32,000 bases of DNA from Pyrolobus fumarii 1A (lineage in GTDB: Archaea; Thermoproteota; Thermoprotei_A; Sulfolobales; Pyrodictiaceae), in contig NC_015931.1 in the NCBI RefSeq assembly GCF_000223395.1, positions 300,001 through 332,000 of the forward strand, written 5' to 3'. How positions within the stretch are numbered: position 1 is the first letter of the stretch; the number at the start of each line of letters is the position of its first letter. The notes below the pieces were generated by a model. It saw nothing but the letters and a program-made list of their open reading frames with translations, made no database searches and had not been told where the DNA came from. Both the position numbers and the translations under genes were made by a program. This document shows, in pieces, positions 3,430 to 21,316 of the stretch.

Positions 3430-3443
3430 GGCCCCGCAGTGGC
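3430..3443 (-). promoter_or_regulatory. motif-2 copy (minus strand GCCACTGCGGGGCC) upstream of the 749-aa gene
   Basis: Exact 12-mer CCCCGCAGTGGC (plus strand) is shared with 8053, 10903 and 21305. A 25-nt gap separates it from the start codon at 3404. Confidence 0.5.
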
Positions 3444-3487
3444 CGGGTCCCGGGGAGCCCCTCCACACGGACACCATCCCGGCGCGG

Positions 3488-3828
3488 GTGCAACCGCGGT
3501 TGCACGGGTAGACTATCGTCGAGGCGTTATCACGCCACGGGTACTATACGCGGAGCCGAGTCAACCGCGGTTGGAGCGAGACAAGAGTCTATGGAGTCCG
3601 GCTACGCCTGGAGGGTCTCGGGGCGCCGGCTCCAACCGCGGTTGTAGCCACTCACGGTACGCCAGTTCGCCCGGGGAGGGAGAGGGGCGAGCGAATGTAC
3701 TCCATGCGTAGCAGCCATGGACGGGGCCCGTATCCCGGTGGCGCCATCAGGGTAACACCATGCGAACGAATGTTCGGCCTCCACGGGCGAGCTCCGAGCA
3801 CTCGTTCACCAGTCTTAACCGCGGTTGG
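3488..3828. repeat. cluster A of AACCGCGGTT palindromes (4 copies) in a 468-nt non-coding gap
   Basis: Copies are GTGCAACCGCGGTTGCAC at 3488-3505 (18-bp perfect palindrome), tCAACCGCGGTTGG at 3561-3574, CCAACCGCGGTTGt at 3632-3645 and ttAACCGCGGTTGG at 3815-3828. Core starts are 3492, 3563 and 3634 (71-nt steps), then 3817. Confidence 0.85.
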
Positions 3829-3872
3829 ACGCCTGTATAGGAGAGGGCCGGGTGTTGTGCGGGGGTGCTGGT

Positions 3873-4316
3873 CTAGACGCTTTCGAGCCTCGCTGTTAGC
3901 CTCCGGTACTCGCCGTCGTCGAGCAGGTAGTAGGCTTCTACGCCAGCCCTCCTCGCGTTAACAGCCTGTATCCTGTCGCACGTGGCGAGGATGGACCCGG
4001 TTACCCTCGCGCAGGCTATGAAGAACGCGTCTGCGGCCCTACACCCGGTTCTAAGCGCGACCTCCACGGCCTCCTCGTGCAGAGTGTCGTAGCCCACGAG
4101 GTTGACGAACCTCGTTATCTCGGCGACGTGCGACGCGGCTCTCTCCGGCCTGTACCTGGCCAGCACGCCGCTAAGCTCGACCACAAGGAGCATCGGGGCG
4201 TACACCGGGAGGTTCCTCCTAGACACCACGTCGATCACGCGTAGGCTCCTCCTGCTCCTCTCGGCGTCGAAGCGTATCAGCGCATCCACGTAGACGGAGG
4301 TATCCAGGACTATCAA
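3873..4316 (-). CDS. vapC: PIN-domain toxin (VapC-like ribonuclease)
   Basis: The N-terminus (M)IVLDTSVYVDAL is a typical PIN first acidic motif. The size is 147 aa. The TTG start overlaps the stop of the upstream antitoxin-like gene (TTGA). Confidence 0.75.
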   Translation of the reverse strand: MIVLDTSVYVDALIRFDAERSRRSLRVIDVVSRRNLPVYAPMLLVVELSGVLARYRPERAASHVAEITRFVNLVGYDTLHEEAVEVALRTGCRAADAFFIACARVTGSILATCDRIQAVNARRAGVEAYYLLDDGEYRRLTARLESV

Positions 4317-4567
4317 CGCCGGCCCCCGGTCAAGCTCTTCAGGGGATCCTCGCGCACACCGCTATACTCGCGCGACAACCTGCGTATAGCCTCGGCGAGC
4401 CCCCCAGACCCCCGGACGATCACTATCACGACCCTCTCGCCGTCCCTCAGGTTCACCCGCCTAAGGGGGCGCAACACACCCCCCTCATAGACAGCCTCCA
4501 CGACCTCCAACGCGCGGCCCCGGGACAAGTGTGGAGAAAGAACCGTATCATATAACGTGGCTGGCAT
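4313..4567 (-). CDS. DUF104 (AF2212-like) antitoxin-type protein paired with VapC
   Basis: VEAVYEGGVLRPLRRVNLRDGERVVIVIV matches the DUF104 signature IEAVYENGVxKPL...LKEGE recalled from the family. The ATG at 4567 was chosen. Shorter TTG starts at 4528 or 4510 are possible, and the long ORF-track start at 4681 overlaps the upstream gene. Confidence 0.6.
   Translation of the reverse strand: MPATLYDTVLSPHLSRGRALEVVEAVYEGGVLRPLRRVNLRDGERVVIVIVRGSGGLAEAIRRLSREYSGVREDPLKSLTGGRR
4548..4555 (-). promoter_or_regulatory. TATA-like box TTATATGA upstream of the short DUF104 start candidates
   Basis: This is a rare A/T-rich octamer in GC-rich context, about 23 nt upstream of the TTG at 4528. It lies inside the ATG-4567 reading, so the box and the long start are mutually exclusive. 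Confidence 0.25.
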
Positions 4568-4583
4568 CCGGGCTGGAGGGGTC

Positions 4584-4985
4584 CTAGGGTTCGGCGTCTC
4601 CGAGCTCCGCCGCGAGGAGTGAGCGTATCTCGTCCAGTATGGCTGGTAGCGAGGGCTCTTCCGCCGGTACGACACTCCCATCGCTTAGGTGCTTGTGGTG
4701 CGGGTGGGTTGGTAGCTCTGGGTGGTGCGGGGCGTTATCATAGCGGAATCTGAGGTTACCATGGGGATCCTCGTAGTGGAAGCGATAGGCTATCCTCTCG
4801 ACCCTCTCGCCCCGCGAGACGAGATACTCGAGGAAGTGCAGCCTGGATCCATCCACGAACCTGATTAACCCTCTCAACACGAGCCTAGTCGGCGACCTCA
4901 CCTCCATGGTGATGCTCGAGTATGTTATCAGCTTGCTAAGCCTCCACAGCTTCTCTATCACTCCTCTCGTATACTCTGCGAGCAA
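4584..4985 (-). CDS. DUF6516-like protein (family annotated as TumE-type toxin)
   Basis: The motifs RFHYEDPHGNLRFRYDNAPHHPELPTHPHHKH fit the recalled DUF6516 pattern (RYDNAPHH...PHHKH). It overlaps the upstream partner by 50 nt, and an alternative ATG lies at 4907. Confidence 0.45.
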   Translation of the reverse strand: MLAEYTRGVIEKLWRLSKLITYSSITMEVRSPTRLVLRGLIRFVDGSRLHFLEYLVSRGERVERIAYRFHYEDPHGNLRFRYDNAPHHPELPTHPHHKHLSDGSVVPAEEPSLPAILDEIRSLLAAELGDAEP

Positions 4986-5247
4986 GCCTCTCTCTAAGAC
5001 CTCTCACCTCCCTAAGCTCCCTCCGCGCCATCTCGAGGAAGACGAGTTCACCATACCACTCGATGAAGTCCTGCTCGTCGCCCAGCTCGCCGCGGAGAAA
5101 GCGCCCCAGGAACTCCTCGGAGGACATCCCATACCTCTCCTCGAATGTCCTGATCCTCTCACGCGTCGCCCTAACCTCGTCCTCGAGCTTCCTTATTCTC
5201 ATCTCGATATCTCTGATCCTCGGCTTGCCACTCACCATGCTCACCAT
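4936..5247 (-). CDS. small coiled-coil protein, putative antitoxin partner of the DUF6516-like gene
   Basis: It is 103 aa and lies directly upstream of, and overlapping, the DUF6516-like gene. The segment YGMSSEEFLGRFLRGELGDEQDFIEW resembles small archaeal addiction-module partners. The assignment rests on context only. Confidence 0.4.
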   Translation of the reverse strand: MVSMVSGKPRIRDIEMRIRKLEDEVRATRERIRTFEERYGMSSEEFLGRFLRGELGDEQDFIEWYGELVFLEMARRELREVRGLRERLARRVYERSDREAVEA

Positions 5248-5290
5248 ACTCCCAGATGCCAGCGCAAGATAACGGTATAGTTATACTTCT

Positions 5291-7123: not shown

Positions 7124-7154
7124 ACCCTCCACCCGGGGAGGATGGAGCGAAAAA

Positions 7155-7162
7155 CGCAGTGG
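7155..7162 (-). promoter_or_regulatory. weak motif-2-like element (CCACTGCG) upstream of the 610-aa gene
   Basis: Only 8 of the 12 core positions are shared. The offset from the ATG at 7123 (12-mer equivalent 27 nt upstream) resembles that of the strong copies. Confidence 0.2.
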
Positions 7163-7164
7163 GG

Positions 7165-8050: not shown

Positions 8051-8064
8051 GGGCCCCGCAGTGG
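8051..8064 (-). promoter_or_regulatory. motif-2 copy (minus strand GCCACTGCGGGGCC) upstream of a pilin-like gene
   Basis: It lies in the 53-nt gap between the stop at 8092 and the ATG at 8038. It is 12 nt from ATG 8038, or 27 nt from GTG 8023. Confidence 0.5.
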
Positions 8065-8091
8065 CTACGCGTGGTAGGGTGGGTGGGTCTC

Positions 8092-8796
8092 CTAAGGCGG
8101 CAGTAGGGCGAGTGCATCCTCGAGAGCCGCCGCACAAGCCTCCATACCACGCTTGCCCGTCCTCCCTCTCAACGGAGACCAACCGAACCTTACTCCCGCG
8201 ACACACGAGGTGAGTATGTAACCGTCTGCTCCAACCGCAGTTGGGTTGGAGGTTCTCACCATCACCCTGAACCCGAGCTTCCCGAGCCTCGCGGTGAACC
8301 TCACTACTCTACCCAACTCCTCCCTCAGGTCGAAAGACGCGTTGTAATAGACGGTGTCGTAGCCGGCCTCGAGGTAGGCCAGGTAGGCTCCGGTGCACCG
8401 GCAGGGCTTCACGACAGGCATGCATGTGAGACCCGCATCCTCCGCAACCCTACAGAACTCGAGGTTAACCTCCACGAGGCGGTGCGCGGGGCCACACGGG
8501 TCCTCGGTTCGCAGCGTCAGGTCGGGACCGGTTACCAGGGTGAACCCTAGCCCAGCTGCCCTCTCCACGAGCATCCTAGCGTCGGGCAGGATAGCCTCTA
8601 GGACATCATCACGGCTTGTCAGCTCGAGGAGGGCCTCCCTGCTCCACCCTACCCTCTCCAGGGACCCGATGCTCCACGTCACCCTGTCCACGGGGACTGC
8701 GAGCCCCAGCCCGCGAGGCTCTCCGAGGAGCCTCCACCACCATGTCGAGCGCTCACGGAGCCTAGCCTCGGCGAACACCCCCACTGCTGGCCCCAT
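8092..8796 (-). CDS. hypothetical protein
   Basis: This 234-aa ORF matches no recognised family. It contains the 1-mismatch palindrome CCAACCGCaGTTGG at 8231-8244. The start is uncertain, lying only 14 nt from the divergent gene at 8811. Confidence 0.4.
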   Translation of the reverse strand: MGPAVGVFAEARLRERSTWWWRLLGEPRGLGLAVPVDRVTWSIGSLERVGWSREALLELTSRDDVLEAILPDARMLVERAAGLGFTLVTGPDLTLRTEDPCGPAHRLVEVNLEFCRVAEDAGLTCMPVVKPCRCTGAYLAYLEAGYDTVYYNASFDLREELGRVVRFTARLGKLGFRVMVRTSNPTAVGADGYILTSCVAGVRFGWSPLRGRTGKRGMEACAAALEDALALLPP

Positions 8797-10421: not shown

Positions 10422-10880
10422 TCACCCTATCTGTATTGTTGCGTAGGTTGTCTTGCTGTACTCGTTGCCCTGGGGATCCCTGTAGTAGACTGTGACCCTG
10501 AGCGTCTTGCCCTCTACGAAGCTTGTTGCTCCGAAGTCTCCTGGTTTCAGCGTGAATCCTAGGGTTGTGGTGGCGCCGGCGCTAAGCAGCCTGTTGAGCG
10601 TCACGTTGTAGGTTGCACCCTCGTAGCCGAACTCGACTACAGTTACATTGAGGGGGACGTTACCATCATTCTTTACCATTAGGTTGATGCTGAGCTCCGA
10701 GCCGTCTGGTGGGATAACAGCAGTGACGCCGGAGACCGATAGGGATGCTATGGTCCTGGGCCTCATGAACTGCCCCATGAACATCCAGACCATTAGGCCG
10801 CCCACCACGGCCACCAGGATCAGTATCATCGCCGCGACGACCGGGGAGACCGCCCTAACCCTACCCGCCACCATGGCCAC
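10422..10880 (-). CDS. archaeal type IV pilin-like protein (class III signal, DUF361-type N-terminus)
   Basis: (M)AMVAGRVRAVSPVVAAMILILVAVVGGLMVW matches the RAVSPVIA-type prepilin N-terminus. A beta-rich domain (LMVKNDGNVPLNVTVVEF) follows. The start is GTG 10880 or ATG 10874. Confidence 0.7.
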   Translation of the reverse strand: MAMVAGRVRAVSPVVAAMILILVAVVGGLMVWMFMGQFMRPRTIASLSVSGVTAVIPPDGSELSINLMVKNDGNVPLNVTVVEFGYEGATYNVTLNRLLSAGATTTLGFTLKPGDFGATSFVEGKTLRVTVYYRDPQGNEYSKTTYATIQIG

Positions 10881-12714
10881 TCTCCAGTTTGCTGAAACCA
10901 GACCCCGCAGTGGCCCAGGGACGCGTCTCGAACAACTCCTGCTCTTCCTCTTTTAGCACAACATGAACGGGTAGCCGGAGGCCCTCTGTTAGTATCAGGG
11001 CGTCGCCTACGTCCGCGCTCATTATGAGCTCCTTCTCCTGGTCTGTTAGCCCGAAGAGCTCGGCTGCAGCCTGCGCCGCGTCATAATCGTGGTGGAAGAG
11101 GACCTTGAGGCTGCTGAGCTGCACTGCTATCACCCTGGCCGCCCTGGAGGCCGAGACGTCGCGTGGGTCGTGAGCGATGTGCACGAAGCTCGTGTAGAGC
11201 TTCCTCGAGTCCCGGAACGCCTGGAGCAAAGCCGAGACCACATCGTAGTCGCGGAAGGCCTCGAGCACTTGAACAAACTCGTCAAGCACCACGATCTTCC
11301 TGACGCTCCTAGGCTCCTCGCGTACCCGCTTGAGTATAACCAAAAGTGATAATGCAGCTGCTAGACGCTCTGCCTCGGGGCTACCCATCTCGCGCAACAC
11401 GATAACCACGCGTTTACCCGGCTTGGGTTCTTGACCCGTGAATAGGAAGCCTAGAGGCCCCTCAAGGAGTGCGAGTAGACGTTCTCTTAGCCTCTCAGAC
11501 GCTTTGTTTGCAACCTCCTCTAGACTAGTGCATCTGGATGCTAGTCTTTGAAGCTCGGCTTTCAGGTCAGGCTCTAGGCTAAGCAATGCTGCAATGAATG
11601 TAGCTGCGTGCTCAGGGTGCATTAGGCGGAACGGGTCGAGACCAGCCTTAACGCCACGCTTAAGCTCGAATATGTCAGCGTTCATCGCTTTACCAACCCT
11701 GATGTACTCCCCGGTACGGTCGATGATGTAGACTCTTAGCTCAGGGTCAAGCCGTGAATATCCAAGCGTTATTTTCTTCGCAAACGCTGATTTACCATAG
11801 CCCATCATGCCAAGCACGACAACATTGTAGCTCGTTCGGGCCCAGAGATCCAGGACGACAGGCGTGTCGTCAAGGAGGCTACGGCCCAGATAGATGCCAC
11901 CGGGCTCGACAAGCTGCGTGGTTATGAACGGGTAGAAGGCGGCGAGGGTGACGCTATCGGTGAAGATGGGCTTAGGTTCCTCGCATTCGTACACCTTGTA
12001 ATAATATATTGTGGAGTCCCCGGCTGCGAATCCGAGTGCGTCGAGCTCGCGGATCAGGAGTCTCGCTGCTTCCCTCGCCTCGCTGGGCGTCGACCCGGAG
12101 ACGACGAGCGCTACGCGCACGGCGTGTAGCCTGGCTTCTCGCGCCGCAACCTCCTCCATAAGCTCCGATACCAGCTGCAGCTCCTCGAGCTTCTCTAGCC
12201 TGGGCGCCTTGCCCTCGATCTGCCACGAGGCCACAAGCATCTCTAGGAGCTTCCTCCTTGACCTGAGCAGCCTGAATGCCGCGTGCCTGGAGAGCGGCGT
12301 GACACAGAGCCTAGCCTCCTCGAGGTGAGGGTACAGGTTGTAGAGGAAGCCCTCGGCGAGGACACGAGGCAAGCCATAGACCGTGACGACGCGATAGACC
12401 CTACCCCCGCACACCGCGTAGCTCCTGCGAAGCTCGCAACGCCCCGGGTCGATGAGCGGGGGCGGAGGCTCCAGGAGAGGCTCGTAGCGTAGCCCGGCCC
12501 TCGAGAGGAGAGGGTCAAGCCTCTGCTCGCTGGCAATGTAGAACTCGTAGCCTGGGACCTCCTCACCCTCGATCTTAACGACGACTCTGCGCACGATGAG
12601 CTGCGTCGTCTTCTCCAGCTTGTCGAGGAGAACTCTAAACGAGTCTATGATCGCCTCCTGCTCCTCCTCAGGGAGCAATGGAAACCCGATTGGGTGGATT
12701 TTGTAAGCGTACAC
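10861..12714 (-). CDS. VirB4/HerA-superfamily (CedB/TrbE-like) DNA-transfer ATPase
   Basis: The protein is 617 aa, with Walker A VVVLGMMGYGKSAFAKK and Walker B RKIVVLDEFVQVLE. The domain order is typical of AAA_10/DUF87 conjugation ATPases. It has a GTG start. Confidence 0.7.
   Translation of the reverse strand: MYAYKIHPIGFPLLPEEEQEAIIDSFRVLLDKLEKTTQLIVRRVVVKIEGEEVPGYEFYIASEQRLDPLLSRAGLRYEPLLEPPPPLIDPGRCELRRSYAVCGGRVYRVVTVYGLPRVLAEGFLYNLYPHLEEARLCVTPLSRHAAFRLLRSRRKLLEMLVASWQIEGKAPRLEKLEELQLVSELMEEVAAREARLHAVRVALVVSGSTPSEAREAARLLIRELDALGFAAGDSTIYYYKVYECEEPKPIFTDSVTLAAFYPFITTQLVEPGGIYLGRSLLDDTPVVLDLWARTSYNVVVLGMMGYGKSAFAKKITLGYSRLDPELRVYIIDRTGEYIRVGKAMNADIFELKRGVKAGLDPFRLMHPEHAATFIAALLSLEPDLKAELQRLASRCTSLEEVANKASERLRERLLALLEGPLGFLFTGQEPKPGKRVVIVLREMGSPEAERLAAALSLLVILKRVREEPRSVRKIVVLDEFVQVLEAFRDYDVVSALLQAFRDSRKLYTSFVHIAHDPRDVSASRAARVIAVQLSSLKVLFHHDYDAAQAAAELFGLTDQEKELIMSADVGDALILTEGLRLPVHVVLKEEEQELFETRPWATAGSGFSKLESGHGGG
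10901..10914 (-). promoter_or_regulatory. motif-2 copy (minus strand GCCACTGCGGGGTC) upstream of a pilin-like gene
   Basis: It lies 20 nt upstream of GTG 10880 (26 nt from ATG 10874). It sits inside the last codons of the VirB4-like gene, where it is read as ATAG. Confidence 0.5.
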
Positions 12715-12902
12715 TTGTGGGCCCCAAGTTCATTGCATGTAGAGACTCACTGGGTGCGGGCACGGTTTGGAGTGCTTCGCGATGAACACCAGTCACGTGA
12801 ACATCTCGTGCTGCTCTATGCTCGTGTTTACCCCTCCCGGCCCTCCCGCGTTAAATAATCTTCGATTTCTTTATTAGGATGTGCGGGGGCGCGCGCAGTA
12901 GC

Positions 12903-12944
12903 TCTGCATGCACGGTTCCAACCGCGGTTGGAACCAGTGCAGAG
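12903..12944. repeat. extended inverted repeat centred on a perfect 22-bp palindrome GGTTCCAACCGCGGTTGGAACC (12914-12935)
   Basis: The outer arms are CTCTGCA (12903-12909) and TGCAGAG (12938-12944). It lies in the 266-nt gap between the TFB-like stop (12981) and the VirB4-like start (12714). An A/T-rich box TTAAATAATCTTCGATTTCTTTATTAGG lies nearby, at about 12851-12878. Confidence 0.85.
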
Positions 12945-12980
12945 AGGAGCATCGGCTGGCACATGTGAGGCTGGGCGGGA

Positions 12981-13973
12981 CTAGTCGTGGGAGTAATTGG
13001 CTAGGAGTGTGATCAGCCGAAGTATTATCAGATCGAGTTGTTGCGTCAGGTTACGGGAGAGGCTCCTGACATAGATGTTGATGGTCTTCGGGTAGACAAG
13101 GGCTGTGAACTCGTCACGTGTATCCATCACTTTGAGCCTGTCTCCCTGGTTGAGGATCACTAGCCTCTCGTGGAGGCCCTCGGGCACCCCGTGTATCTCT
13201 ATGCGGAAGGGGAGGTGTAGAACCGACGTTGCAACCATGGGTTTGGGCTCTGTTATCTCGACCCCGAGCTTCGACGCCACGTGGCGTAATGCACGCTCAG
13301 CCTCCTCGAGATTGCCTAGGCGTGCTGGTGCCTCGAGCTTACCCCTCGTGACCTGAACCTTGACGCCACGAGTCTCGACGATTACCTGTTTCACCGCGCC
13401 TCTCCTCACGCGAGACGCTAGGATGATCGCCGCCCGGTAGACGTCGATGGGTTGCAGGGGCTTAGCAGCCAGCCGGACGAGCGTGCTGGAGACAGCCTCG
13501 CGCCAGGCCTCGAGGAGGCTCCTGGCGGTTCTCACCGCTCTACGAGGCGCACCCAGCCTATCGCCATACACGGCCTCCTGGAGAGCGTCTAGAGCCGTGT
13601 TCGGGTTCAGCTTGTAGACCCGGCGTAGCACCCGATACGCGCCGAGGCAACGCACGCCGCAAATGTCGATCGCCCTGGACTCGCCTACGCGAAGCCACCC
13701 GCCGATCTCCTCGCGAATCTGCTTCAGGTCTTCATCGGTCTCTGGTAGCCCTCCCCGGGCCGCGATATCCTCGAGTCTCTCGCGTCTCGTCGGCTCCCTG
13801 GGCCTCTCCACCGGCGTGTAGTGATCCCTTGCTAGGAGCTCCTCGGTGTCATAGGCCCTGTACTCCGGGTGAAGATCGACAGGCGAGTCGTCTATGACAA
13901 CGCCGGTCTCCGGGTCGATTATTGCGCCGCTATGTGGATCCACTATCCAACCGCGGTTGGATACTCTGGTCAC
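12981..13973 (-). CDS. divergent TFB (TFIIB)-like protein lacking Zn-ribbon cysteines
   Basis: The N-terminus WIVDPHSGAIIDPETGVVIDDSPVDLHPEYRAYDTEE parallels the archaeal TFB ribbon/B-reader segment (..D...GE..C...G.V.....ID.GPEWRAF), with the Cys residues replaced. The length of 330 aa is TFB-like, and PIDVYRAAIILASRV is a possible cyclin-like helix. An 18-bp palindrome lies in codons 4-10. Confidence 0.45.
   Translation of the reverse strand: MTRVSNRGWIVDPHSGAIIDPETGVVIDDSPVDLHPEYRAYDTEELLARDHYTPVERPREPTRRERLEDIAARGGLPETDEDLKQIREEIGGWLRVGESRAIDICGVRCLGAYRVLRRVYKLNPNTALDALQEAVYGDRLGAPRRAVRTARSLLEAWREAVSSTLVRLAAKPLQPIDVYRAAIILASRVRRGAVKQVIVETRGVKVQVTRGKLEAPARLGNLEEAERALRHVASKLGVEITEPKPMVATSVLHLPFRIEIHGVPEGLHERLVILNQGDRLKVMDTRDEFTALVYPKTINIYVRSLSRNLTQQLDLIILRLITLLANYSHD
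13945..13962. repeat. perfect 18-bp palindrome ATCCAACCGCGGTTGGAT at the 5' end of the TFB-like gene
   Basis: It lies 12-29 nt downstream of the ATG at 13973 and is read as SNRGW. Confidence 0.85.
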
Positions 13974-14021
13974 GGGCGTGGACCCTAGAGGGTCGCGTAT
14001 AGCCCGTAGCTCCTGTTAACA

Positions 14022-14636
14022 CTACCGCTTGTCACCCTCTTTCAACTCCACCAGCACCCTCCTCTCGTAGAGCACCACGCCATCCGGCCCAACGATACGA
14101 ATGACATGGTGCCCGGGCTTCAGGTAGAGCAGCGCCGAGAAGCGGCCAGACCCGTCGGTACGAGCCTCAGCCACCCTCCTACCGTCAACCTCGGCAACAA
14201 CCTGGGCACCCACGAGGGGCGAGCCATCCGGGGCCACCGCGACGCCCTCAAGCCTCACAGGCTCCCCCACCGCCACAACAACCCTCGCCACCCCGCGATC
14301 CGCGCCGCGCCTCTCGCGGGCAGCGCGGGACTTGGCTGGTGGGCGTTTACCAACCGCGGTTGAGCGAAATGCAGCAAGGAGCTTCTCCTCGGGGCACCAC
14401 GCGGTGCAGCCCGGTGCGAGCGCCGTGACGGTGAGGCCGATGACGCTGGAGGCTATCAGGGCGGGGAACCAGTCGAGGCCGTTCTGGAGCGCCACGAGGA
14501 GAGCAACTAGGGCGGCAGGCGCCCCGTAGAAGAGGAGGCGGCGTGGCTCGACGTCACCGATGAAGGGTAGTGTTATGATCGGCTCCTCGAGCCACCTGCG
14601 CTCACGGAACCAGAGTGTTCTTATGATGCGTGCCAT
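14022..14636 (-). CDS. membrane protein with a C-terminal carboxypeptidase-regulatory-like beta-sandwich
   Basis: Two central TM helices are present. The C-terminal GVAVAPDGSPLVGAQVVAEVDGRRVAEARTDGSGRFSALLYLKPGHHVIRIV resembles a CarboxypepD_reg fold. It overlaps the upstream gene by 16 nt. Confidence 0.45.
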   Translation of the reverse strand: MARIIRTLWFRERRWLEEPIITLPFIGDVEPRRLLFYGAPAALVALLVALQNGLDWFPALIASSVIGLTVTALAPGCTAWCPEEKLLAAFRSTAVGKRPPAKSRAARERRGADRGVARVVVAVGEPVRLEGVAVAPDGSPLVGAQVVAEVDGRRVAEARTDGSGRFSALLYLKPGHHVIRIVGPDGVVLYERRVLVELKEGDKR

Positions 14637-15079
14637 GCTAGGAGCGACACCCCGACTATGAAGGCTGCGGCGCCCAGTGTTGTGAGGATAGTGTTCGCCG
14701 TTGGGTCGTCGTAGTGGATTGGGCCGCGTAGCCTCCTTCTCGAGAGCGGCCAGAGGGGCCAGACGCCCGCGGGTGTCAGGGCGTCGAGGGCTAGGTGGGT
14801 GGCGGTCCCCGCCGCTGCGAGCGGGTAGGCTAGTGGCGTGACCAGCCTCCAGGCCGCGTTAAGAACAGCTGTTATCAGGGCGGGGAGGAGCAAGCAGGCG
14901 AACAGGTTGTGGGTCCAGGGTGCGCGCCGACGCCCAACATGCCCCAACGCATCTATGAACTCGTCCGCGGCGAGAGCCGCCAAGAGAGCCACGCCGAAAT
15001 CGGCGAAATGCGCGTGGAGCAGCCCGGCGAGGAGCGCAACAACACCCGCCGCGATGCTTAAGTGCGTCTTCCTCCTCAA
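14621..15079 (-). CDS. DUF457 (YdjM/YbcI-like) membrane-bound metal-dependent hydrolase family protein
   Basis: MRRKTHLSIAAG at the N-terminus and THLALDALTPAGVWPLWPLS match the recalled DUF457 pattern (H..lD.lT..Gv.l..P). Confidence 0.55.
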   Translation of the reverse strand: MRRKTHLSIAAGVVALLAGLLHAHFADFGVALLAALAADEFIDALGHVGRRRAPWTHNLFACLLLPALITAVLNAAWRLVTPLAYPLAAAGTATHLALDALTPAGVWPLWPLSRRRLRGPIHYDDPTANTILTTLGAAAFIVGVSLLAWHAS

Positions 15080-15324
15080 CGCGTCGCCACCATCGCAACC
15101 CCAATCAGCACGAGCACGAGAGCCCAGAGCGCTACGAGGCTGGATGTCACAACCCTGTCTATATCCTCGCGTCTAACGAGCCTGGCCCCCATGTAGAAGA
15201 TTGTGGCTAGGAGGAGCGCGTAGAGGAAGGGGGCTAGGGTCTCGAGGCCGAGTGGCTTCAGAGCGATTGAAAAGACTCGAGCGGGCCACGAAAGGGCCTC
15301 CGCTACTCGCGCTGCACCCAGCAT
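15076..15324 (-). CDS. small membrane protein
   Basis: It is 82 aa with two or three hydrophobic helices. It overlaps the downstream gene by 4 nt, indicating operon context. Confidence 0.45.
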   Translation of the reverse strand: MLGAARVAEALSWPARVFSIALKPLGLETLAPFLYALLLATIFYMGARLVRREDIDRVVTSSLVALWALVLVLIGVAMVATR

Positions 15325-15342
15325 CTAGGCGTCCCCCGGGTG

Positions 15343-17856
15343 TTAGCCTTGCGAGGCTGCAGTGATTGCAAACATCTTGTGTATGTAAGCTCGTACCAGC
15401 GGATCTGCATAGGCTAGCATGGCGGCGAGTATCAATGCGACTATTGTTAGTCTCAGTGTAGCCTTGAGGGAGCCGTCTATCGCCTTGCTGCCCACCGTGG
15501 CCATCGCTGCGCTAGCCTCGACTACCATGAGCCTGGTTGCCTCGACGCTAGCCGGGTTGAGGACGAAGAGGGTTGGCGTGGCTACGCCCGCGCCCGAGAC
15601 CTGACTAGTTATCCTCTGGAGCTGGACTGTGAACACCTCGGCGATCCCCGCGCTCATGGAGGCGAAGGAGGCTAGCATCACGGGAGCCGCGTACATCAGC
15701 GCCTCGTAGAGCCTCAGCTGGCTCTTCATCTCGCGGTAGGCGAGATAGTAGTCCTGGAGGAACCTGTGGAGAGTCTCCAGGACCCGTGGAGTACCGCCAC
15801 CCGTCGCCTCTATCTCGGCGACGGTGAAGAGAACTATCCTGGCGACCCTCGAGGGGGTCCAGAGCCTCAGCACCGCCTCGTCGAGCGGTACGTCGAGCCT
15901 CAGCATGGCCGCGAGCTTCTCAATTAGCGCGTTGAAGTGCTGGTTGTAGGGCTTCCTCTCGGCGAGGTCTAGGATGGCACTCGAGGGTGGTAGCCCGATC
16001 TTACGGTACTCGAGCAGGTCGCGGACGAAGAGGGGGAGAGCCGCCTCGTGGGCCCTGGCGATGCGCACCTGGAGCAGCCACTGGGCGCCGTAGCCGAGCC
16101 CCAGCGCCGCTATCACGGCTGTGAGGGCTGCCCAGGAGTACCCGTAGCTGAGCACACCCCACGCCGCCGCGACAGCCACGGCAACGGCGGGTATACCGTG
16201 GGCTATCGCCACCTCGGGAACCGTGAAACCCAGTTGCATTGACTGCACGATGCCGACGAAGACCGCAGCCATGAGGGGGATCCCCAGGTAGGTGAACACT
16301 TGGAGAAACGCAGCCTGCTCCACAGCGCCGCCGACAATCGCGAAAATGGAGGTTAGGAGGACAAAGGCAATCACCATCACCTCGCCGAGAGTCACCACCC
16401 TCTCGGCGAACTGACGGAGACGGAAACGGAGCCACTCGAGCTGCTCCCTAACCCTATCCTCCAGGTAGCCTAGGAGGTCCCCGCCTGTGACAACGAGGCT
16501 GGTGTACCCACGGAGCAGGTCGGCGAAGCTCCTGGAGGGGTGCGTATCCGCCAGCCTCTCCATAGCAGTGATCCAGTCGACGCCCTCCACCATCACAGTG
16601 CGCTCTAGGAGCCTAGCCTCCCTCTCCATAGCGGGGAGGATGGAGCCCCGGAGCCTCCTGAAAGCCTCGAAGAGGGAGACACCAGCAGCCTGAAGGCTGG
16701 CGGCGAGAAGCACGAACCATGGTAGCTCGTCCTCGACGCGTCTTCTCCTCTCACCCGCCTTGCTAGGTAGCTCTAGCCACGGGGAGGCTAGCGTGGAACA
16801 TGCCGCGAGGAGGGCTGCTCCAACCGCGGTTGCACCGAGTGTCGGCGAGAGTAGGGCGAGTGGCAGGAGGGAGGGGGTGGCCGCGAGCGTTAGAAGTGCT
16901 GCCGTGAGCCTCTTCGAGGCGTAGACTACCGGGTCTTCGAAGACAGCTGCGCGCTGCAGCATCGGCTTGATCCTCTCGGCGTAGGCCTCGAGGAGCTGCG
17001 CGAGCCTCTCGTGCTTGATTAGGAGCGCCACGTACCACCTCGAGTAGTGGGGTCTTATCGCGAGCCTCGGAGCCACCACCACAATCCTATAGATGCTCGT
17101 CGAGAGGCCCGCGAGGCCGTAGACTATCACGATGTAGCCGCTGGCGAGGCTGAGAGAATCCGGAGCCGCCACCAGCAGCGTATAGCCAGCGATAGTGTCT
17201 AGCGCGAACAGCACACCCTCCACGAGCTCAGCGCGGATGAAGGGCGCTTGGCCTCGAGGCGGGTGGATGATGACCCTACTGGGCTTCAGTTTCAGGCCAC
17301 GGACTGCGGCCAGCAGGGAGCCCGTCAAGGCTGGTATCAGGGCGGCTGCAAGGAACGGCCTACCGGGAAGGGCCGAGACAACGGCGAGAGCAGAGTAGGC
17401 GACGGCGGCGAACCTCCACTCGCCCGGCAGCAGCCTCACCGCGTAGTACGTCGAGACCAGGAGGAGCGGGGCGGATGCGAGCGCGAGCATGCTAGCGGGG
17501 CTTGCGGCCGCCACCAATGTTAGTGCGAGCGACTCGAGCAGCAAGAGCACTGAGTACCTTGGCTTGGGTCTCACTAAGCGGGTGGCCAGGTACGCCACGC
17601 TAGACGAGAGGAGGGGTGCGGCGAGCACCAGCGCTGGCAGCGGGCCTAGCAGAGCAACCGCGGTTGGAACTGATGCGGCGAACAACAGCGTTGACAGCCA
17701 ATGGGGGGTGGTGATCCCGAGTAGGACGCCCGCCAGGAGGCCGGACGCCAGCGCCACTATAGTATAATAGATATCTATCCCGTGATGGAGAGTCGGTAGC
17801 GACGCGAGCCACGCGATCACAGTGACCGCGGTTAGAGCGGCCCTCCTCGCATTCAC
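15343..17856 (-). CDS. TadC/FlaJ/PilC-type pilus platform protein (two T2SSF repeats) with a long polytopic N-terminal extension
   Basis: Two T2SSF-like repeats are present: ELPWFVLLAASLQAAGVSLFEAFRRL...GGDLLGYLEDRV and ALPLFVRDLLEYRKIGLPPSSAILDL...TGGGTPRVLETL. The protein is 837 aa, with roughly the first 380 aa being extra TM helices. It lies immediately downstream of the T2SSE ATPase. Confidence 0.75.
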   Translation of the reverse strand: MNARRAALTAVTVIAWLASLPTLHHGIDIYYTIVALASGLLAGVLLGITTPHWLSTLLFAASVPTAVALLGPLPALVLAAPLLSSSVAYLATRLVRPKPRYSVLLLLESLALTLVAAASPASMLALASAPLLLVSTYYAVRLLPGEWRFAAVAYSALAVVSALPGRPFLAAALIPALTGSLLAAVRGLKLKPSRVIIHPPRGQAPFIRAELVEGVLFALDTIAGYTLLVAAPDSLSLASGYIVIVYGLAGLSTSIYRIVVVAPRLAIRPHYSRWYVALLIKHERLAQLLEAYAERIKPMLQRAAVFEDPVVYASKRLTAALLTLAATPSLLPLALLSPTLGATAVGAALLAACSTLASPWLELPSKAGERRRRVEDELPWFVLLAASLQAAGVSLFEAFRRLRGSILPAMEREARLLERTVMVEGVDWITAMERLADTHPSRSFADLLRGYTSLVVTGGDLLGYLEDRVREQLEWLRFRLRQFAERVVTLGEVMVIAFVLLTSIFAIVGGAVEQAAFLQVFTYLGIPLMAAVFVGIVQSMQLGFTVPEVAIAHGIPAVAVAVAAAWGVLSYGYSWAALTAVIAALGLGYGAQWLLQVRIARAHEAALPLFVRDLLEYRKIGLPPSSAILDLAERKPYNQHFNALIEKLAAMLRLDVPLDEAVLRLWTPSRVARIVLFTVAEIEATGGGTPRVLETLHRFLQDYYLAYREMKSQLRLYEALMYAAPVMLASFASMSAGIAEVFTVQLQRITSQVSGAGVATPTLFVLNPASVEATRLMVVEASAAMATVGSKAIDGSLKATLRLTIVALILAAMLAYADPLVRAYIHKMFAITAASQG

Positions 17857-17880
17857 TCTAGATCCCGGGTTGTAACGAGG

Positions 17881-19515
17881 CTAGGCTGCAGTGCGGCGCC
17901 TCTGCATGTGGAACGCCTTAAGGTGCCGATAGAACTCTTTCCAGTTGTAGATCCTCTTCTCGGTTAGCCTCTCTAGGAGCTCGGCTCGGGCCGCCAGCTC
18001 CTCGACGAGGCGCCCCCGGTCCCAGCCCAGGGCCTCTGCCTTGACCTGAAGCCTCACGGATCTCCTCGCAACCTCCTCGGGGCTGCTTGGCTCGAAGGTG
18101 TCGCGGCGCGGGTCCCACCTGAACACCTGAGTGTACTCTATCTCGTCTTGGACTCCGGGTGCGCGCACCAGGATCCTCGGGTGGCCCTGCCTAGGCTCAG
18201 GGAGGATCTCGTAGACGGCCTTCACCCTGCGGACGGTTCTACCCTCGACGACGGTCCTCGTCATGAAGACGATGGTGTTGAGGACGCGGATGAATGAGGG
18301 GCCTACGCTGAGCGGCGGCGATACGAGCCTCGTCACCATCTCGTGTAGAGAGCCAGCATGGAAAGTGCCACCTCCCCCGTGACCCGTCGCAAGAGCCTGG
18401 ATGAGCACCGAGGCCTCCTCGCCTCTAACCTCGCCGACGACGATCACTTGCGCCCTCCTCCTAAGCGCGAACTTGACGAGGTCAAACAGCGTCACGTCTC
18501 TGGCGGTTCCCGCGAAGAAGGATCTCCTGGTGTATAGCGGGTCCCAGCCGGGATGCGGCAACCGGAGCTCAGGGACGTCCTCGACTGTCACTATCCTCCA
18601 GTCGGGTGGTGCCATGGAGAGCGTCGCGTTGAGCATGGTTGTCTTCCCCGAGGCCATCTCGCCGACGAAGAAGACGTTGCCGTAGAGCTCCAGGAGGAGC
18701 ATGAGGTACGCCGCGAGCAGCGGAGAGAGGGTACCTAGCTCCACCAGCTTAGGCACCGAGTAGGGGACCTCCGGGAACTTGCGGAGCACAAACCCGGGAC
18801 CAACACCGTGGATGTCGCCAAGGTTCAGAGCTATCCTGTGACGCTCTGGTGTACGCGCCTCGAGGAGAGGATTAGCCGTCGAGATGTACTGGCCAGCCTT
18901 CTGGGCCAACCGCTGCACATACCGGGCCATCTCAGCCTCCCGGGGCATCACGATGTTAGTCTCGATCCACGTGACCCACCCTACGTCACGGTGCACGACC
19001 TGCACGGGTCTACCCGGAAGTCCCGCAACCTCCTCGACGTTAGGGTCGCGCACCAACACATCGATAGGACCCCAACCGGCTACATCGCGAGTTACATAGT
19101 ACTGCAATGCCCTCAGGTCGTCCCCGCTCATCACGTCGGCTAGACCAAGCTCCTCGACAGCCTCGATCACAACGGCCTTCAGGTACTCCTCGTGATTGAT
19201 GCCGTCGGAGGGCGGCCTAGCGGTGAACGCAATATGGTCCATGACGAGAGGGTAGTAGCGTCTGACTGACTCGCTAACCGGTGGCTCGTGAACCAGATAC
19301 ATGACTTCATTCTCGAACTCGACAAGGTAGACCGTAGCCAGGTTGTCGACACCAGCACGGTATGATCTCAGAACCCTAGCCCTACCCGGCAATACTACAG
19401 CATCGGCTTGTGCGCTGACCAGGCGGTAGCCAGTCGCGATCCTCCGGCGTCGACGTCCGGGGACAAATGCATCGAGTAGTGCTTTTCTCAAGCCATTTAG
19501 GTCTAAGCCTTTCAC
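17881..19515 (-). CDS. GspE/FlaI/TadA-family (T2SSE) secretion/pilus assembly ATPase
   Basis: It has Walker A GEMASGKTT, Walker B VIVVGEVRGEE and His box TGHGGGGTFHAGS. The GTG start overlaps the upstream stop (GTGA). Confidence 0.85.
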   Translation of the reverse strand: MKGLDLNGLRKALLDAFVPGRRRRRIATGYRLVSAQADAVVLPGRARVLRSYRAGVDNLATVYLVEFENEVMYLVHEPPVSESVRRYYPLVMDHIAFTARPPSDGINHEEYLKAVVIEAVEELGLADVMSGDDLRALQYYVTRDVAGWGPIDVLVRDPNVEEVAGLPGRPVQVVHRDVGWVTWIETNIVMPREAEMARYVQRLAQKAGQYISTANPLLEARTPERHRIALNLGDIHGVGPGFVLRKFPEVPYSVPKLVELGTLSPLLAAYLMLLLELYGNVFFVGEMASGKTTMLNATLSMAPPDWRIVTVEDVPELRLPHPGWDPLYTRRSFFAGTARDVTLFDLVKFALRRRAQVIVVGEVRGEEASVLIQALATGHGGGGTFHAGSLHEMVTRLVSPPLSVGPSFIRVLNTIVFMTRTVVEGRTVRRVKAVYEILPEPRQGHPRILVRAPGVQDEIEYTQVFRWDPRRDTFEPSSPEEVARRSVRLQVKAEALGWDRGRLVEELAARAELLERLTEKRIYNWKEFYRHLKAFHMQRRRTAA

Positions 19516-19763
19516 GCCGTCACCCAGTGGTAGGGTTGTGCGTGTGCAGTGACTGCGGATGTTCTGGTCTTCTCACTCTCCAGGTTTTCGAGTAGTAGTG
19601 CAACAGCCGAGCCTACGAGCAGACCAAGTGCGCCGCCAAGCGCTGCACCAGTTACACGGCCTAGTGCATAACCCAGAGTTATGCCTGCAAGTGTCGTAGC
19701 AGCTATCATTGCTAGCTTCGGGTCGCTTGTCCTAAGGTATAGTTCATATAACATGTTCATCAT
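19512..19763 (-). CDS. small Gly-rich 2-TM membrane protein (CedA2/VirB2-like candidate)
   Basis: The sequence begins MMNMLYELYLRTSDPKLAMIAATTLAGITLGYALGRVTGAALGGALGLLVGSAVALLL. The ATG at 19763 was chosen because the ORF-track extension overlaps the upstream gene. A hairpin abuts the start. Confidence 0.5.
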   Translation of the reverse strand: MMNMLYELYLRTSDPKLAMIAATTLAGITLGYALGRVTGAALGGALGLLVGSAVALLLENLESEKTRTSAVTAHAQPYHWVTA

Positions 19764-19783
19764 CCCCCGAAAGTATTCGGGGG
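19764..19783 (-). other. perfect stem-loop CCCCCGAA-AGTA-TTCGGGGG abutting the start codon
   Basis: An 8-bp G/C-rich stem with a 4-nt loop fills most of the 29-nt gap between the stop at 19793-19795 and the ATG at 19763. Confidence 0.7.
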
Positions 19784-19792
19784 CGTAATACG

Positions 19793-20968
19793 TTAATATT
19801 CCTGCTGCTGGTGTGTGAAAGCGTGCCAAGGTATCCCTAGGGTCTCGTCGACGACCCGCTTGTAGTATCTCCTTGTTTGAAGTTTCCACAACGTATGTTT
19901 GTAAGCATGTTGTAGAATGTAACCTAGGCCGCCTAGCGGGTATGTTGGCTCTCTTATCGCATGTATCAGACCCCGGGTGAACCCGACTATCCTCGAGGCT
20001 ATTCCGCCTGTGGGTGTCGTGACCGGCCATGGTAGTGGGCTTCGGACGAGTTCTGGGGCTGCTGCCAGGTGTGGCACGATCTGTCTGATTGTCTTTGCCG
20101 CTGCGGGGCCAGCCACATAGCCTAGGAACATGCTTGTCAGGGCCATTGTCGTGGAGGCTCTAGGAGCTAGGATGCTGGCGATGACTGGGGCGAAGAAGCT
20201 GGCTGCTATCATCATGAGTGTGAGGCCGGCCTCGTAGACGCCGCTGGGGTCCCAGTGGGTTATGAGTTCGGACCCCAGCCTGTACACCGCAGATGCCAAC
20301 AGAGGCACGAAGAGCAGGCCGGTGAGGGTTGACACCGCCCCATGGGCCACGTCCCGCACGTACCTGGCGGGAGCGAGCGTCAGGGCTAACCATAGTGGGA
20401 GTGTCGCTGCTAACACCGCTGTAAGCATCAAGCGGAGCGCGTTGAACATCCCGAGGAAGATCATGATGGAGAAGAAGGCTGTGAGGACTGCTGGAGCCCC
20501 GAGCAGCGTCGCACCGCCTATGACTGCCGCCGCGCCCTCGGTGACCTTCGCGAGGTAGACGTCCTCGGGGTTGCCCGAGAAGAGGGTGTAGGACCCCCAC
20601 GCGACGAGAGCAGCCGCCCCGTCGTAGACGTGCTTCGAGAGGAGGATGGCTAAGAGGACTAGGAGCGAGCGTTTCAACACAGTGCCCAGCTCCACCCTAT
20701 CCTCATAGAGGTATTCCAGAAGCGCGAGGAGGGTCATGAAGGTGTAGGCCAGGATGCCTAGCAGCAGGGAGGTGTCGTACACCGCGTTCATGGCGGGCGC
20801 GAGGTCGTGGAAGACGCGGGGCGCGTCGCGAGTATAGACGTCGAAACCGGGGACGGCAAGGCTAAGCTCGATGACAGGCTTCACGGTAAACTCGGCGATG
20901 AAACGCGCGACAGGATCGATAAGCGTCTTGAAAAGCTCGTTAAGCGCGTCGAATATCGGGTTTCCCAT
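19793..20968 (-). CDS. polytopic membrane protein, VirB6/TrbL/CedA-like candidate
   Basis: It is 391 aa with many TM helices, flanked on both sides by small 2-TM genes as in cedA1-cedA-cedA2. The assignment rests on architecture and context, not on a recognised motif. Confidence 0.5.
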   Translation of the reverse strand: MGNPIFDALNELFKTLIDPVARFIAEFTVKPVIELSLAVPGFDVYTRDAPRVFHDLAPAMNAVYDTSLLLGILAYTFMTLLALLEYLYEDRVELGTVLKRSLLVLLAILLSKHVYDGAAALVAWGSYTLFSGNPEDVYLAKVTEGAAAVIGGATLLGAPAVLTAFFSIMIFLGMFNALRLMLTAVLAATLPLWLALTLAPARYVRDVAHGAVSTLTGLLFVPLLASAVYRLGSELITHWDPSGVYEAGLTLMMIAASFFAPVIASILAPRASTTMALTSMFLGYVAGPAAAKTIRQIVPHLAAAPELVRSPLPWPVTTPTGGIASRIVGFTRGLIHAIREPTYPLGGLGYILQHAYKHTLWKLQTRRYYKRVVDETLGIPWHAFTHQQQEY

Positions 20969-20987
20969 AGCCCGTACACCTCTACCC

Positions 20988-21275
20988 TCACTCGGCGGTG
21001 ACTAGGCGCAGCACATTCACCGCGATGACCATCCCCGCTATCGCCGAGACTATCCACTGGACCCAGCGGAGCAGAGTCACCATCATGTCGCCGAGCGTCC
21101 TCCCGCTCGGCAGCTGTACCTTCGCAACGTCGGGCTGCTGGCTGTAGATGCCCCAGCCTAGGAAGCTCCTCGCGAAGAAGTCGATTGCATAGGGGAGGAT
21201 CCACACGAGGATCAACACAAAAACAGCGACCATCAACTGCTTCTTGGCTCGTGCAGCCTCGAACGGGTCCGGCAC
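20988..21275 (-). CDS. small 2-TM protein (VirB2/CedA1-like pilin candidate)
   Basis: Two hydrophobic helices are present (LMVAVFVLILVWILPYAIDFF and MMVTLLRWVQWIVSAIAGMVIAV). GTG 21275 was chosen because motif-2 lies 27 nt upstream of it. The alternatives are ATG 21377, which adds a 34-aa hydrophilic leader and overlaps the upstream gene, or ATG 21233. Confidence 0.4.
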   Translation of the reverse strand: MPDPFEAARAKKQLMVAVFVLILVWILPYAIDFFARSFLGWGIYSQQPDVAKVQLPSGRTLGDMMVTLLRWVQWIVSAIAGMVIAVNVLRLVTAE

Positions 21276-21302
21276 GGATCCCGCACCCAGGAGTGTGGCG
21301 GG

Positions 21303-21316
21303 GACCCCGCAGTGGC
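21303..21316 (-). promoter_or_regulatory. motif-2 copy (minus strand GCCACTGCGGGGTC)
   Basis: The exact 12-mer core lies 27 nt upstream of the GTG at 21275. Confidence 0.45.

Follow-up and report, generated by a model that had tools for sequence, protein, structure and literature searches.

Archaeal transcription is thought to start at promoters that combine a TATA box with a TFB-recognition element (BRE), and that are read by two separate proteins, TBP and TFB. A pilus and secretion gene cluster of Pyrolobus fumarii 1A raises the question of whether such a locus may carry a start signal, and a reader for it, of its own. The cluster lies in the 32,000-nucleotide stretch analysed here in full ('the window': contig NC_015931.1, positions 300,001 to 332,000; coordinates below count from its first nucleotide). 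In this stretch an initial annotation had noted a repeated 12-nucleotide word ahead of four pilin-like or secretion-related genes. We conclude that the word is the strongest variant of an 8-bp box, [C/G][C/T][A/C/T]ACTGC (SYHACTGC), which also stands ahead of the machinery genes and recurs in diverged relatives of the cluster. Wherever the boxed clusters were found, they carry a gene for a protein with a TFB-like N-terminus and a predicted TBP-like saddle. We think it rather probable that the box is a cluster-specific core promoter element, and that this TFB-TBP fusion factor reads it.

A repeated word and the shorter box within it

The 12-mer CCCCGCAGTGGC occurs in four exact copies on the plus strand of the window (3432-3443, 8054-8065, 10903-10914 and 21305-21316), against an expectation of 0.01 copies; none of 100 dinucleotide-preserving shuffles reached four. 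Every copy is in the sense orientation relative to the gene downstream, and the minus-strand reading of the four long copies is GCCACTGCGGGG[C/T]C. Outside this 14-mer the flanking sequences cannot be aligned with each other, which argues that the copies are not remnants of a duplication. The gap from the 14-mer to the start codon is 25 nt for GTG 3404 of the gene for a 749-amino-acid (aa) protein and 27 nt for GTG 21275 of a VirB2-like gene; ahead of an UpsA-like pilin gene (pilinB) it is 20 nt to GTG 10880 or 26 nt to ATG 10874, and ahead of a second pilin-like gene (pilinA) 13 nt to ATG 8038 or 28 nt to GTG 8023.

The number, identity and orientation of the copies are thus as first described. 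The positions originally given hold for the copies at 3432, 10903 and 21305, but the one placed at 8053 starts at 8054; owing to this slip, both pilinA gaps are one nucleotide larger than had been claimed, whereas the gaps of the other three genes stand. Also present is the weaker copy that had been noted before the gene for a 610-aa secreted protein (CCACTGCG, 7155-7162), its ACTGC lying 32 nt ahead of ATG 7123. Two further claims need revision. The element had been confined to four minus-strand pilin-like or secretion genes: those copies are real, but the core also fronts machinery genes and two plus-strand genes. Nor is the 12-mer the functional unit, that role falling instead to the short box SYHACTGC, which precedes machinery as well as pilin genes.

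Ten genes in the window carry the box, eight on the minus and two on the plus strand (Table 1), at a box-to-start distance of 30-34 nt and in one case 23 nt. As a bare 5-mer, ACTGC shows no overall excess (41 copies on both strands, of which 21 are on the minus strand, against an estimated ~60 expected); it is strongly position-specific.

Related clusters, which we gathered by way of the ATPase and the factor described below, fall into seven diverged lineages from Desulfurococcales metagenomes. Their ATPases range from 87% down to 49% identity to that of the window, and the ACTGC-bearing loci from 42% to 61% G+C. Among all 5-mers in the interval from -45 to -16 of 78 genes from eight loci, ACTGC ranks first, being present in 37 of the 78 genes versus 1.6 expected (P≈3e-41). 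The next-ranked 5-mers all overlap it, and the antisense GCAGT occurs only twice. A few start codons of this gene set were picked with knowledge of the motif; the 30-nt width of the interval makes the result insensitive to that choice.

In L006, L007 and L008/L009 the box reads (C)TAACTGC(T) and lies 23-25 nt ahead of the ATG of VirB2-like, ATPase, UpsF-like, small-protein, VirB4-like and pilin genes (median spacing in L006-L009, 24 nt; 14 of 19 sites at 23-25 nt), and thus spans -30 to -23 from the ATG. In L017-L019 we find (C)TACTGC 27-32 nt ahead of the start. The Pyrolobus group (the window, L004, L005/L011 and L012) has (C)CACTGC at a median of 31 nt, with 16 of 18 sites within 30-34 nt and a span of about -38 to -31. 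A position matrix built from 43 sites, themselves selected by their ACTGC core, extends that core to S(-3) Y(-2) H(-1) ACTGC.

The 14-mer is a P. fumarii variant of this box that fronts structural genes. L011 has the identical 14-mer at its pilinB ortholog, the site orthologous to that of the VirB2-like gene reads GCTACTGCGGGGGG in L004, and the low-GC lineages have a comparable subclass, GGAGTAACTGCTAGT, ahead of pilin-type genes. The long P. fumarii form, GCCACTGCGGGGYC, which marks structural (pilin-type) genes, is probably a high-affinity or separately tuned class. Three other descriptions of the motif were rejected: palindromy is inconsistent among the long copies; in three of the four the GCCAC of the motif can pair as RNA with GUGGC at the start codon, but the fold energies of this hairpin are no better than those of shuffles and the other sites share no structure, which speaks against it as a general mechanism; and ACTGC as an initiator with a canonical TATA box ~25 nt upstream was ruled out, there being no consistent A/T-rich element at that place.

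The DNA sequence of the box is kept in three settings: between genes, at the end of the upstream gene, where it provides the stop codon (TAACTGC; seven of ten cases checked by hand), and at the C-terminus of the ATPase, where it is read as Arg-Thr-Ala. It is also found before genes that have no co-directional upstream gene or nearby A/T-rich sequence, namely 8811(+) in the window, its ortholog in L011 (5495(-)) and the pilin gene at 13672 in L019. Genes that lack a box either overlap the gene before them or start shortly after it, and their AGGTGA Shine-Dalgarno sites are strong; it is thus the heads of short transcription or translation units that boxes mark. Between the box and the start, about 10 nt ahead of nearly all start codons, there is a run of G residues (GGG, GGTG, GGTGA). 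The distance of this G-run to the start codon is constant in all lineages, whereas its distance to the box shifts from +14 to +21; it therefore behaves like a Shine-Dalgarno site. The spacer 3' of the box is poor in G (a fraction of 0.10 versus a background of ~0.25 in the low-GC lineage). In L006 and L008 the spacer between the factor and VirB4 genes contains four direct and one inverted ACTGC within ~135 nt, a pattern typical of protein-binding DNA.

Two individual box sites deserve mention. In the most divergent cluster (L019 14960-16305) the box fronts a gene for a D12-class DNA methyltransferase whose N-terminus is a CPxCG zinc ribbon, and a second methyltransferase gene comes after it. 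In the window the box of the ATPase gene lies inside an 80-aa open reading frame (ORF; 19512-19754, minus strand) that overlaps the ATPase start by 4 nt; this ORF is called as a gene in Logan assemblies of P. fumarii, has no equivalent in L004 and may not be real.

A factor gene that accompanies the box

Another key observation is that a gene for a factor of ~300 aa is present in every ACTGC cluster: Pyrfu_0344 in the window (12981-13973), with its counterparts at L007 9014, L008 5325, L006 10229, L011 397, L012 4054, L017 4207, L018 348 and L019 5361. Box and factor co-occur in all seven cluster lineages found. The family is small, comprising only 16 clusters (14 of them below 1e-30) in an exhaustive HMMER search of 1.84e9 protein representatives.

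The N-terminus of the factor (...PEGFLVDEETGEVV..PID.EHPEYRAYD) aligns with the ribbon and B-reader of TFB (...C..CG.VI...IDxGPEWRAF). The NCBIfam TFIIB model PRK00423 matches residues 6-49 with an E-value of 4.7e-5, below its curated cut-off, and in a profile search of the PDB the top four matches are all TFIIB/TFB N-termini (1pft, E 0.0086). The weaker matches of the HMMER search (8e-9 to 9e-4) are likewise confined to profile positions 1-55. TFIIB cyclin repeats were present in seven of ten weaker matches tested (in the range E 7e-7 to 2e-4), and an eighth gave a weak TFIIB zinc-ribbon match only; the two strongest N-terminal-only matches (8e-9 and 4e-8) are without TFIIB cyclin repeats. 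Judged by these alignments the N-terminus of the factor is TFB-derived, and the earlier proposal that the locus encodes a TFB-like protein is borne out by the profile, NCBIfam and exhaustive HMMER matches. Pfam returned nothing at E<=1 for the factor and its homologues, including no TFIIB, cyclin or TBP model.

The remainder of the protein is described by two AlphaFold models, one of the P. fumarii protein and one of its family member P0121, that rest on a 7-sequence alignment; the mean predicted local distance difference test score is 77, and exceeds 85 over the C-terminal 200 residues. Both models place a helical middle domain, of five helices in the case of P0121, before a two-repeat β-sheet saddle. 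When these models were compared with the PDB by Foldseek, TBP made up the top 45 and the top 43 matches, respectively (E 1.6e-7 to 2.6e-7; template-modelling score up to 0.74; ~175 (170-190) aligned columns that take in both repeats, that is, whole TBP cores). Chains of an engineered Brf1-TBP fusion (8ffz_H, 6cnb_R) and the poxvirus VETF-l are also among the PDB matches, and the viral Foldseek library returned giant-virus TBPs and VETF. The C-terminus is accordingly predicted to form a complete TBP-like saddle.

Alone among the cluster genes, that of the factor has canonical TATA-like sequences upstream in place of ACTGC. In most lineages this upstream region contains TTTATAA, TTTTAAG, TTTATAG, TTTAAATA or TTTAATAAA, and in the G/C-rich lineage, which includes the window, GTTAACA. 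The linker of the factor is ~30 aa longer in the Pyrolobus group; this coincides with the 7-8-nt longer spacing described above, as a correlation only. Searches of viral contigs, plasmids and phages found no relatives of the factor; a genome-contig search found two loci in metagenome-assembled genomes (MAGs), and a metagenome search redundant loci only. Also of interest are Ignisphaera MAG and metagenome contigs (L010, L014, L015) in which a factor homologue, P0126 (353 aa), is encoded beside a pilin gene and two membrane-protein genes; GAGTATCTAG, which we considered as an alternative motif of these loci, is neither significant nor conserved.

A proposed private promoter box weighed against its rivals

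We favour a promoter function because the box is positioned relative to the downstream gene, stands alone before divergent genes, occurs in arrays with an inverted copy, and travels with the factor across base compositions. The initial annotation had suggested a non-canonical promoter element read by the TFB-like protein of the locus. This idea is in part supported and is the best-supported reading; it is strengthened by the fusion of that protein to a TBP-like domain and by the co-occurrence of box and factor across lineages. What we infer is the mechanism itself: binding of the factor to the box, initiation directed by the box, and the sites at which transcripts begin. Host TBP and TFB would transcribe Pyrfu_0344 from a canonical TATA-like promoter. 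The factor would then bind the ACTGC box by its TBP-like saddle, its TFB-type ribbon and B-reader would recruit RNA polymerase, and transcription would begin at a fixed distance downstream of the box, at or just upstream of the start codon.

In its fullest form the proposal is that a natural single-chain TFB-TBP factor of a possibly mobile pilus/DNA-transfer cluster reads SYHACTGC as a G/C-containing TATA substitute, independently of the host TBP and TFB and portable across genomes of 42% to 61% G+C. We offer this form tentatively, and put it a little short of an even chance. If true, Archaea would have their first described core promoter class other than TATA and their first natural TFB-TBP fusion, and the TBP fold would prove retargetable to a non-TATA sequence in this domain of life. 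It would also provide a minimal, tractable two-part system (one protein, one 8-bp box) for asking how TBP/TFB geometry sets the start site, and would explain how a hyperthermophile's DNA-exchange apparatus is switched on as one unit, in parallel with the TFB3-ups/ced circuit. The box is also an immediate aid to annotating transcription units and start codons in poorly annotated clusters.

Several observations weigh against a promoter read in this way. Canonical TBP reads the minor groove of A/T sequence and disfavours G:C pairs, whereas the box has an invariant C, G and C. The ribbon segment has no cysteines, and hence none of the four zinc-binding ones of TFB, in the proteins of the window, P0124, P0125 and P0121; in addition, a sequence profile of the C-terminal domain matched nothing in the PDB at E<=10, so that the TBP-like domain is without a sequence-level TBP match. 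The Ignisphaera-type loci carry a factor homologue but have no ATPase/VirB4 cluster and no ACTGC pattern, and the factor family is therefore not strictly tied to the box.

Geometry adds further difficulties. The TATA box of a crenarchaeal leaderless mRNA sits at about -30 to -23 from the ATG. The initial annotation had likened the box to the BRE/TATA elements of such mRNAs: the position is matched in L006-L009, but it is not obvious that the transcripts are leaderless, given a Shine-Dalgarno-like G-run ahead of nearly every start. Since this run lies between box and start, at least some transcripts should begin upstream of it; under canonical geometry, box-directed transcripts of L006-L009 would have no leader and those of P. 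fumarii one of 6-10 nt, so that the G-run would be missing or cut through. It may be that the run serves read-through transcripts, or that the fused factor sets a shorter box-to-start distance. Bearing in mind that the box-to-start spacing differs by 7-8 nt between lineages, we note that a fixed pre-initiation geometry does not predict such a shift unless the length of the 5'-untranslated region (5'-UTR) differs as well. Moreover, TATA-like sequences are found 40-60 nt upstream of the box in L007 (VirB4 gene), in L004 and at the VirB2-like gene of the window, so that at these sites the box would fall in the 5'-UTR. In the case of the P. fumarii VirB4 gene the box lies as far as 180 nt upstream, and an A/T-rich element separates the two.

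It is chiefly these features that lend weight to a signal acting in RNA, the second option of the initial annotation (a 5'-UTR or processing signal). Long polycistronic RNAs would carry ACUGC ~14-21 nt upstream of each Shine-Dalgarno site, as an endonuclease or RNA-binding protein site that defines processed 5' ends or enhances translation; the processing of bacterial pilus operon mRNAs and the footprints of pentatricopeptide-repeat proteins in organelles are comparable. The G-run at its constant distance from the start, a G-poor spacer that would be unstructured as RNA, the strict strand-specificity of the box, its frequent place exactly at the upstream stop codon, and the TATA-like sequences that put some boxes in 5'-UTRs all agree with such a signal. 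Yet ten segments reaching from box to start showed no more stable folding than their shuffles (z between -2.3 and +1.5, mostly near 0) and have no structure in common, and an Rfam scan of the window at gathering thresholds returned a tRNA-Ser only. The cluster has no RNase-like or RNA-binding-like gene, its sole conserved nucleic-acid-type protein being the transcription-initiation-factor chimera. Boxes that front genes with no co-directional gene upstream, and arrays with inverted copies downstream of the factor gene, are equally out of keeping with processing of a long RNA. We regard this explanation as weakened, and unlikely, while giving it more credence than either of those that follow.

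That array of multiple and inverted copies in the factor-to-VirB4 spacer does resemble an operator, and a G/C-containing box is unlike anything TBP is known to bind. ACTGC might therefore be bound by some other host- or cluster-encoded protein (e.g., the ribbon-helix-helix/zinc-finger protein of 21969-22493) that acts on promoters with degenerate core elements, the TFB-TBP-like protein doing something else; other regulators do act on the region, as is shown by CCAACCGCGGTTGG, a second element present in excess. However, no other putative DNA-binding protein recurs in the gene tables of the related loci, the ribbon-helix-helix/zinc-finger ORF having been identified in the window only; of transcription-type proteins, the factor alone was seen in every one of these loci. 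No alternative A/T-rich core, such as an 8-bp TATA element, was found in the 60-90 nt examined upstream of the starts at G/C-rich loci, and spacing to the start codon that is only 3 nt wide is not required of an operator. We judge a conventional operator to be quite improbable. Chance, or a functionless remnant of duplicated upstream regions, hardly enters into consideration: given that pilinA and pilinB are paralogues, inheritance could account for one pair of copies, but the expectation of 0.01 for four exact copies and the unalignable flanks speak against it, as does the retention of the core at orthologous and non-orthologous genes, in lineages with ~50% ATPase identity and from 42% to 61% G+C.

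The surrounding cluster and its known counterparts

The FlaI-like ATPase of the window is 100% identical to a Pyrolobus fumarii 1A protein. Genes served by the boxes form a minus-strand core (Table 1), and the minus-strand cluster also encodes a CarboxypepD_reg-domain protein and additional class-III-signal proteins. Matches to the T4SS_pilin and TrbL_3 families are weak. Since all similarities are below the curated family cut-offs, we describe the cluster, by its sequence matches, as a hybrid of an Ups-like pilus and a Ced-like or type IV secretion system (T4SS)-like set (VirB2-, VirB6- and VirB4-like) rather than as a member of either. Toxin-antitoxin-like genes lie between the cluster genes on the minus strand (a PIN domain at 3873-4316, an AF2212-like gene at 4313-4681 and a member of the TumE toxin family at 4584-4985), none of which carries an ACTGC box.

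Table 1. Coordinates of boxes, cluster genes and palindromes in the window
Feature	Position	Strand	Remarks
Long box GCCACTGCGGGGCC	3430..3443	-	ACTGC 31 nt ahead of GTG 3404, 749-aa class-III-signal protein
Short box CCCACTGC	7156..7163	-	32 nt ahead of ATG 7123, 610-aa secreted protein
Long box GCCACTGCGGGGCC	8052..8065	-	ACTGC 34 nt ahead of GTG 8023 (19 nt ahead of ATG 8038), pilin-like gene A
Second ACTGC near pilin-like gene A	8100-8104	-	further copy
Short box CCCACTGC	8780..8787	+	23 nt ahead of ATG 8811, divergently transcribed 316-aa gene; kept in L011
Long box GCCACTGCGGGGTC	10901..10914	-	within last codons of VirB4-like gene; ACTGC 32 nt ahead of ATG 10874, UpsA-like pilin gene B
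Box GCTACTGC	12895..12902	-	factor-to-VirB4 intergenic region; 21 nt past CCAACCGCGGTTGG palindrome; A/T-rich TTATTTAA downstream
Short box ATCACTGC	15359..15366	-	34 nt ahead of ATG 15324, 82-aa gene (first of 82aa-YdjM-204aa unit)
Short box CGCACTGC	17888..17895	-	within ATPase C-terminal codons (R-T-A); 31 nt ahead of GTG 17856, UpsF-like 837-aa membrane protein
Short box GTCACTGC	19546..19553	-	30 nt ahead of GTG 19515, FlaI/UpsE-like secretion ATPase
Long box GCCACTGCGGGGTC	21303..21316	-	ACTGC 33 nt ahead of GTG 21275, VirB2-like small membrane protein
Short box GACACTGC	27243..27250	+	32 nt ahead of GTG 27283 (234-aa gene); 26 nt 3' of CCAACCGCGGTTGG palindrome
Cluster core	10861..21275	-	genes served by boxes
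UpsA-like pilin (pilinB)	start 10874 (ATG)	-	UpsA 3e-8, below curated cut-off
VirB4/CedB-like ATPase	10861-12714	-	VirB4 models 6e-20 to 3e-14, CedB 7e-4; below curated cut-offs
Pyrfu_0344, putative box reader	12981..13973	-	cysteine-less TFB ribbon and B-reader-like segment, low-confidence linker, helical middle domain, predicted C-terminal two-repeat TBP-like saddle
82aa/YdjM/204aa genes	14022-15324	-	small 82-aa protein, YdjM-family protein, 204-aa gene
UpsF-like 837-aa membrane protein	15343-17856	-	NCBIfam UpsF 6e-65, below curated cut-off
FlaI/UpsE-like ATPase	17881-19515	-	FlaI similarity, below curated cut-off
TrbL/VirB6-like gene	19793-20968	-	L007 homologue matches TrbL_3 (weak)
VirB2-like small membrane protein	20988-21275	-	start GTG 21275
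Palindrome AACCGCGGTT, exact copies	17, 3492, 3563, 3634, 3817, 12920, 13949, 14352, 16822, 17656, 21360, 24135, 25986, 26067, 26803, 26826, 26932, 26955, 27125, 27211, 28524

A second repeated element of the window is the palindrome AACCGCGGTT (in extended form CCAACCGCGGTTGG, containing a SacII site), with 21 exact and seven one-mismatch copies versus 0.78 expected. Several of them precede an ACTGC box by 17-50 nt or a plus-strand start (24163, 26023) by 19-28 nt; one falls in codons 6-9 of the factor gene, and is found at the same place in L011 and L012. The block of palindrome and GCTACTGC box in the factor-to-VirB4 spacer is also conserved in L011 and L012. Among the relatives the palindrome is restricted to the G/C-rich ones (L005, L011, L012 and partly L004). 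It is probably the operator of a dimeric regulator. The minus-strand ORF at 21969-22493, in which a C2H2 zinc finger and a ribbon-helix-helix (CopG) domain are joined, is a candidate regulator, e.g., of this palindrome.

Two long non-coding regions are rich in these copies. Upstream of the 749-aa gene, an unusually long non-coding region (3405-3872, ~470 nt) has palindromes at a 71-nt period (3492, 3563, 3634) and another at 3817. A 570-nt gene-free stretch (26713-27282) holds about nine copies in paired arrays (26780-26835, 26932-26964, 27125, 27211) around an A/T-rich core (~27000-27060), and might serve an integrated element as its replication origin or control region. A tRNA-Ser(GCT) gene lies at 29392-29479 on the minus strand, with housekeeping genes (Thi4, SOR/SNZ) beyond it; G+C falls from mostly 0.59-0.68 within the cluster region to about 0.57-0.58 past the tRNA. 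The related cluster in L007 adjoins a phage-integrase gene (L007 205-759), and no att repeats or integrase were found within the window. The last palindrome at 28524, the tRNA, the step in G+C and the L007 integrase suggest that the cluster is an integrated mobile element bordered by tRNA-Ser.

Regulation by alternative TFB or TBP paralogues is known mainly from haloarchaea and from TFB3 of Sulfolobus. The nearest parallel to the present locus is the TFB3 regulon, where a truncated TFB switches on the genes of the ups pilus and of ced DNA import (PMC6101594), and where the ups promoters share an essential hexanucleotide motif that recurs ahead of many UV-regulated genes (PMC5817253). In both cases a dedicated TFB paralogue without the normal DNA-binding cyclin core is associated with type IV pilus (here Ups-like) and Ced/T4SS-like genes and with a short, non-palindromic motif ahead of them; the genes of the window resemble UpsA, UpsF, FlaI/UpsE and CedB/VirB4. 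The differences are nevertheless substantial. TFB3 consists of a four-cysteine zinc ribbon and a coiled coil, has no DNA-binding domain and works with TFB1 and TBP, whereas Pyrfu_0344 is cysteine-less and has a predicted TBP-like saddle of its own. The Sulfolobus motif lies upstream of a normal BRE/TATA, while the ACTGC box is at the TATA position with no TATA downstream of it; and the Sulfolobus genes are dispersed on the chromosome, whereas here regulator and targets form one compact cluster.

Like a canonical BRE and TATA box, the element is directional, ~8 bp long and at a fixed distance upstream (-30 to -23 from the ATG in one lineage), and its putative reader combines the modules that read TATA and recruit RNA polymerase. 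Unlike them, the box is not A/T-rich, has its invariant C, G and C, lacks a BRE-like purine tract and varies in spacing between lineages, and the reader would be one chain without recognisable cyclin repeats.

Poxviruses, which encode TBP/TFIIB-like factors for their own promoters (PMC12917281), offer a further analogy: with VETF, VITF-3 and the giant-virus TBPs, a mobile entity has its own diverged TBP-fold factor that steers RNA polymerase to its own promoters (PMC12917281), and Foldseek links the factor structurally to VETF-l and the giant-virus TBPs. These systems, however, belong to viruses of eukaryotes that have an RNA polymerase of their own; no relationship was detected at the sequence level, and VITF-3 has its TBP-like and TFIIB-like parts on separate subunits. 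A TFIIB-family factor and TBP are joined in a single chain in the engineered Brf1-TBP fusion of RNA polymerase III studies, but that protein is artificial and eukaryotic, its cyclin repeats are complete and its TBP is of the TATA type. Surveys of type IV pilus loci in Archaea describe TFIIB homologues with cyclin domains and no TBP fusion (PMC4858521), and a survey of the TBP-domain superfamily has no TFB-TBP fusion (PMC3597702). Both the fusion architecture and a G/C-containing TATA substitute would be unprecedented in Archaea, although the general type, in which an alternative initiation factor has its cognate promoter element, is known.

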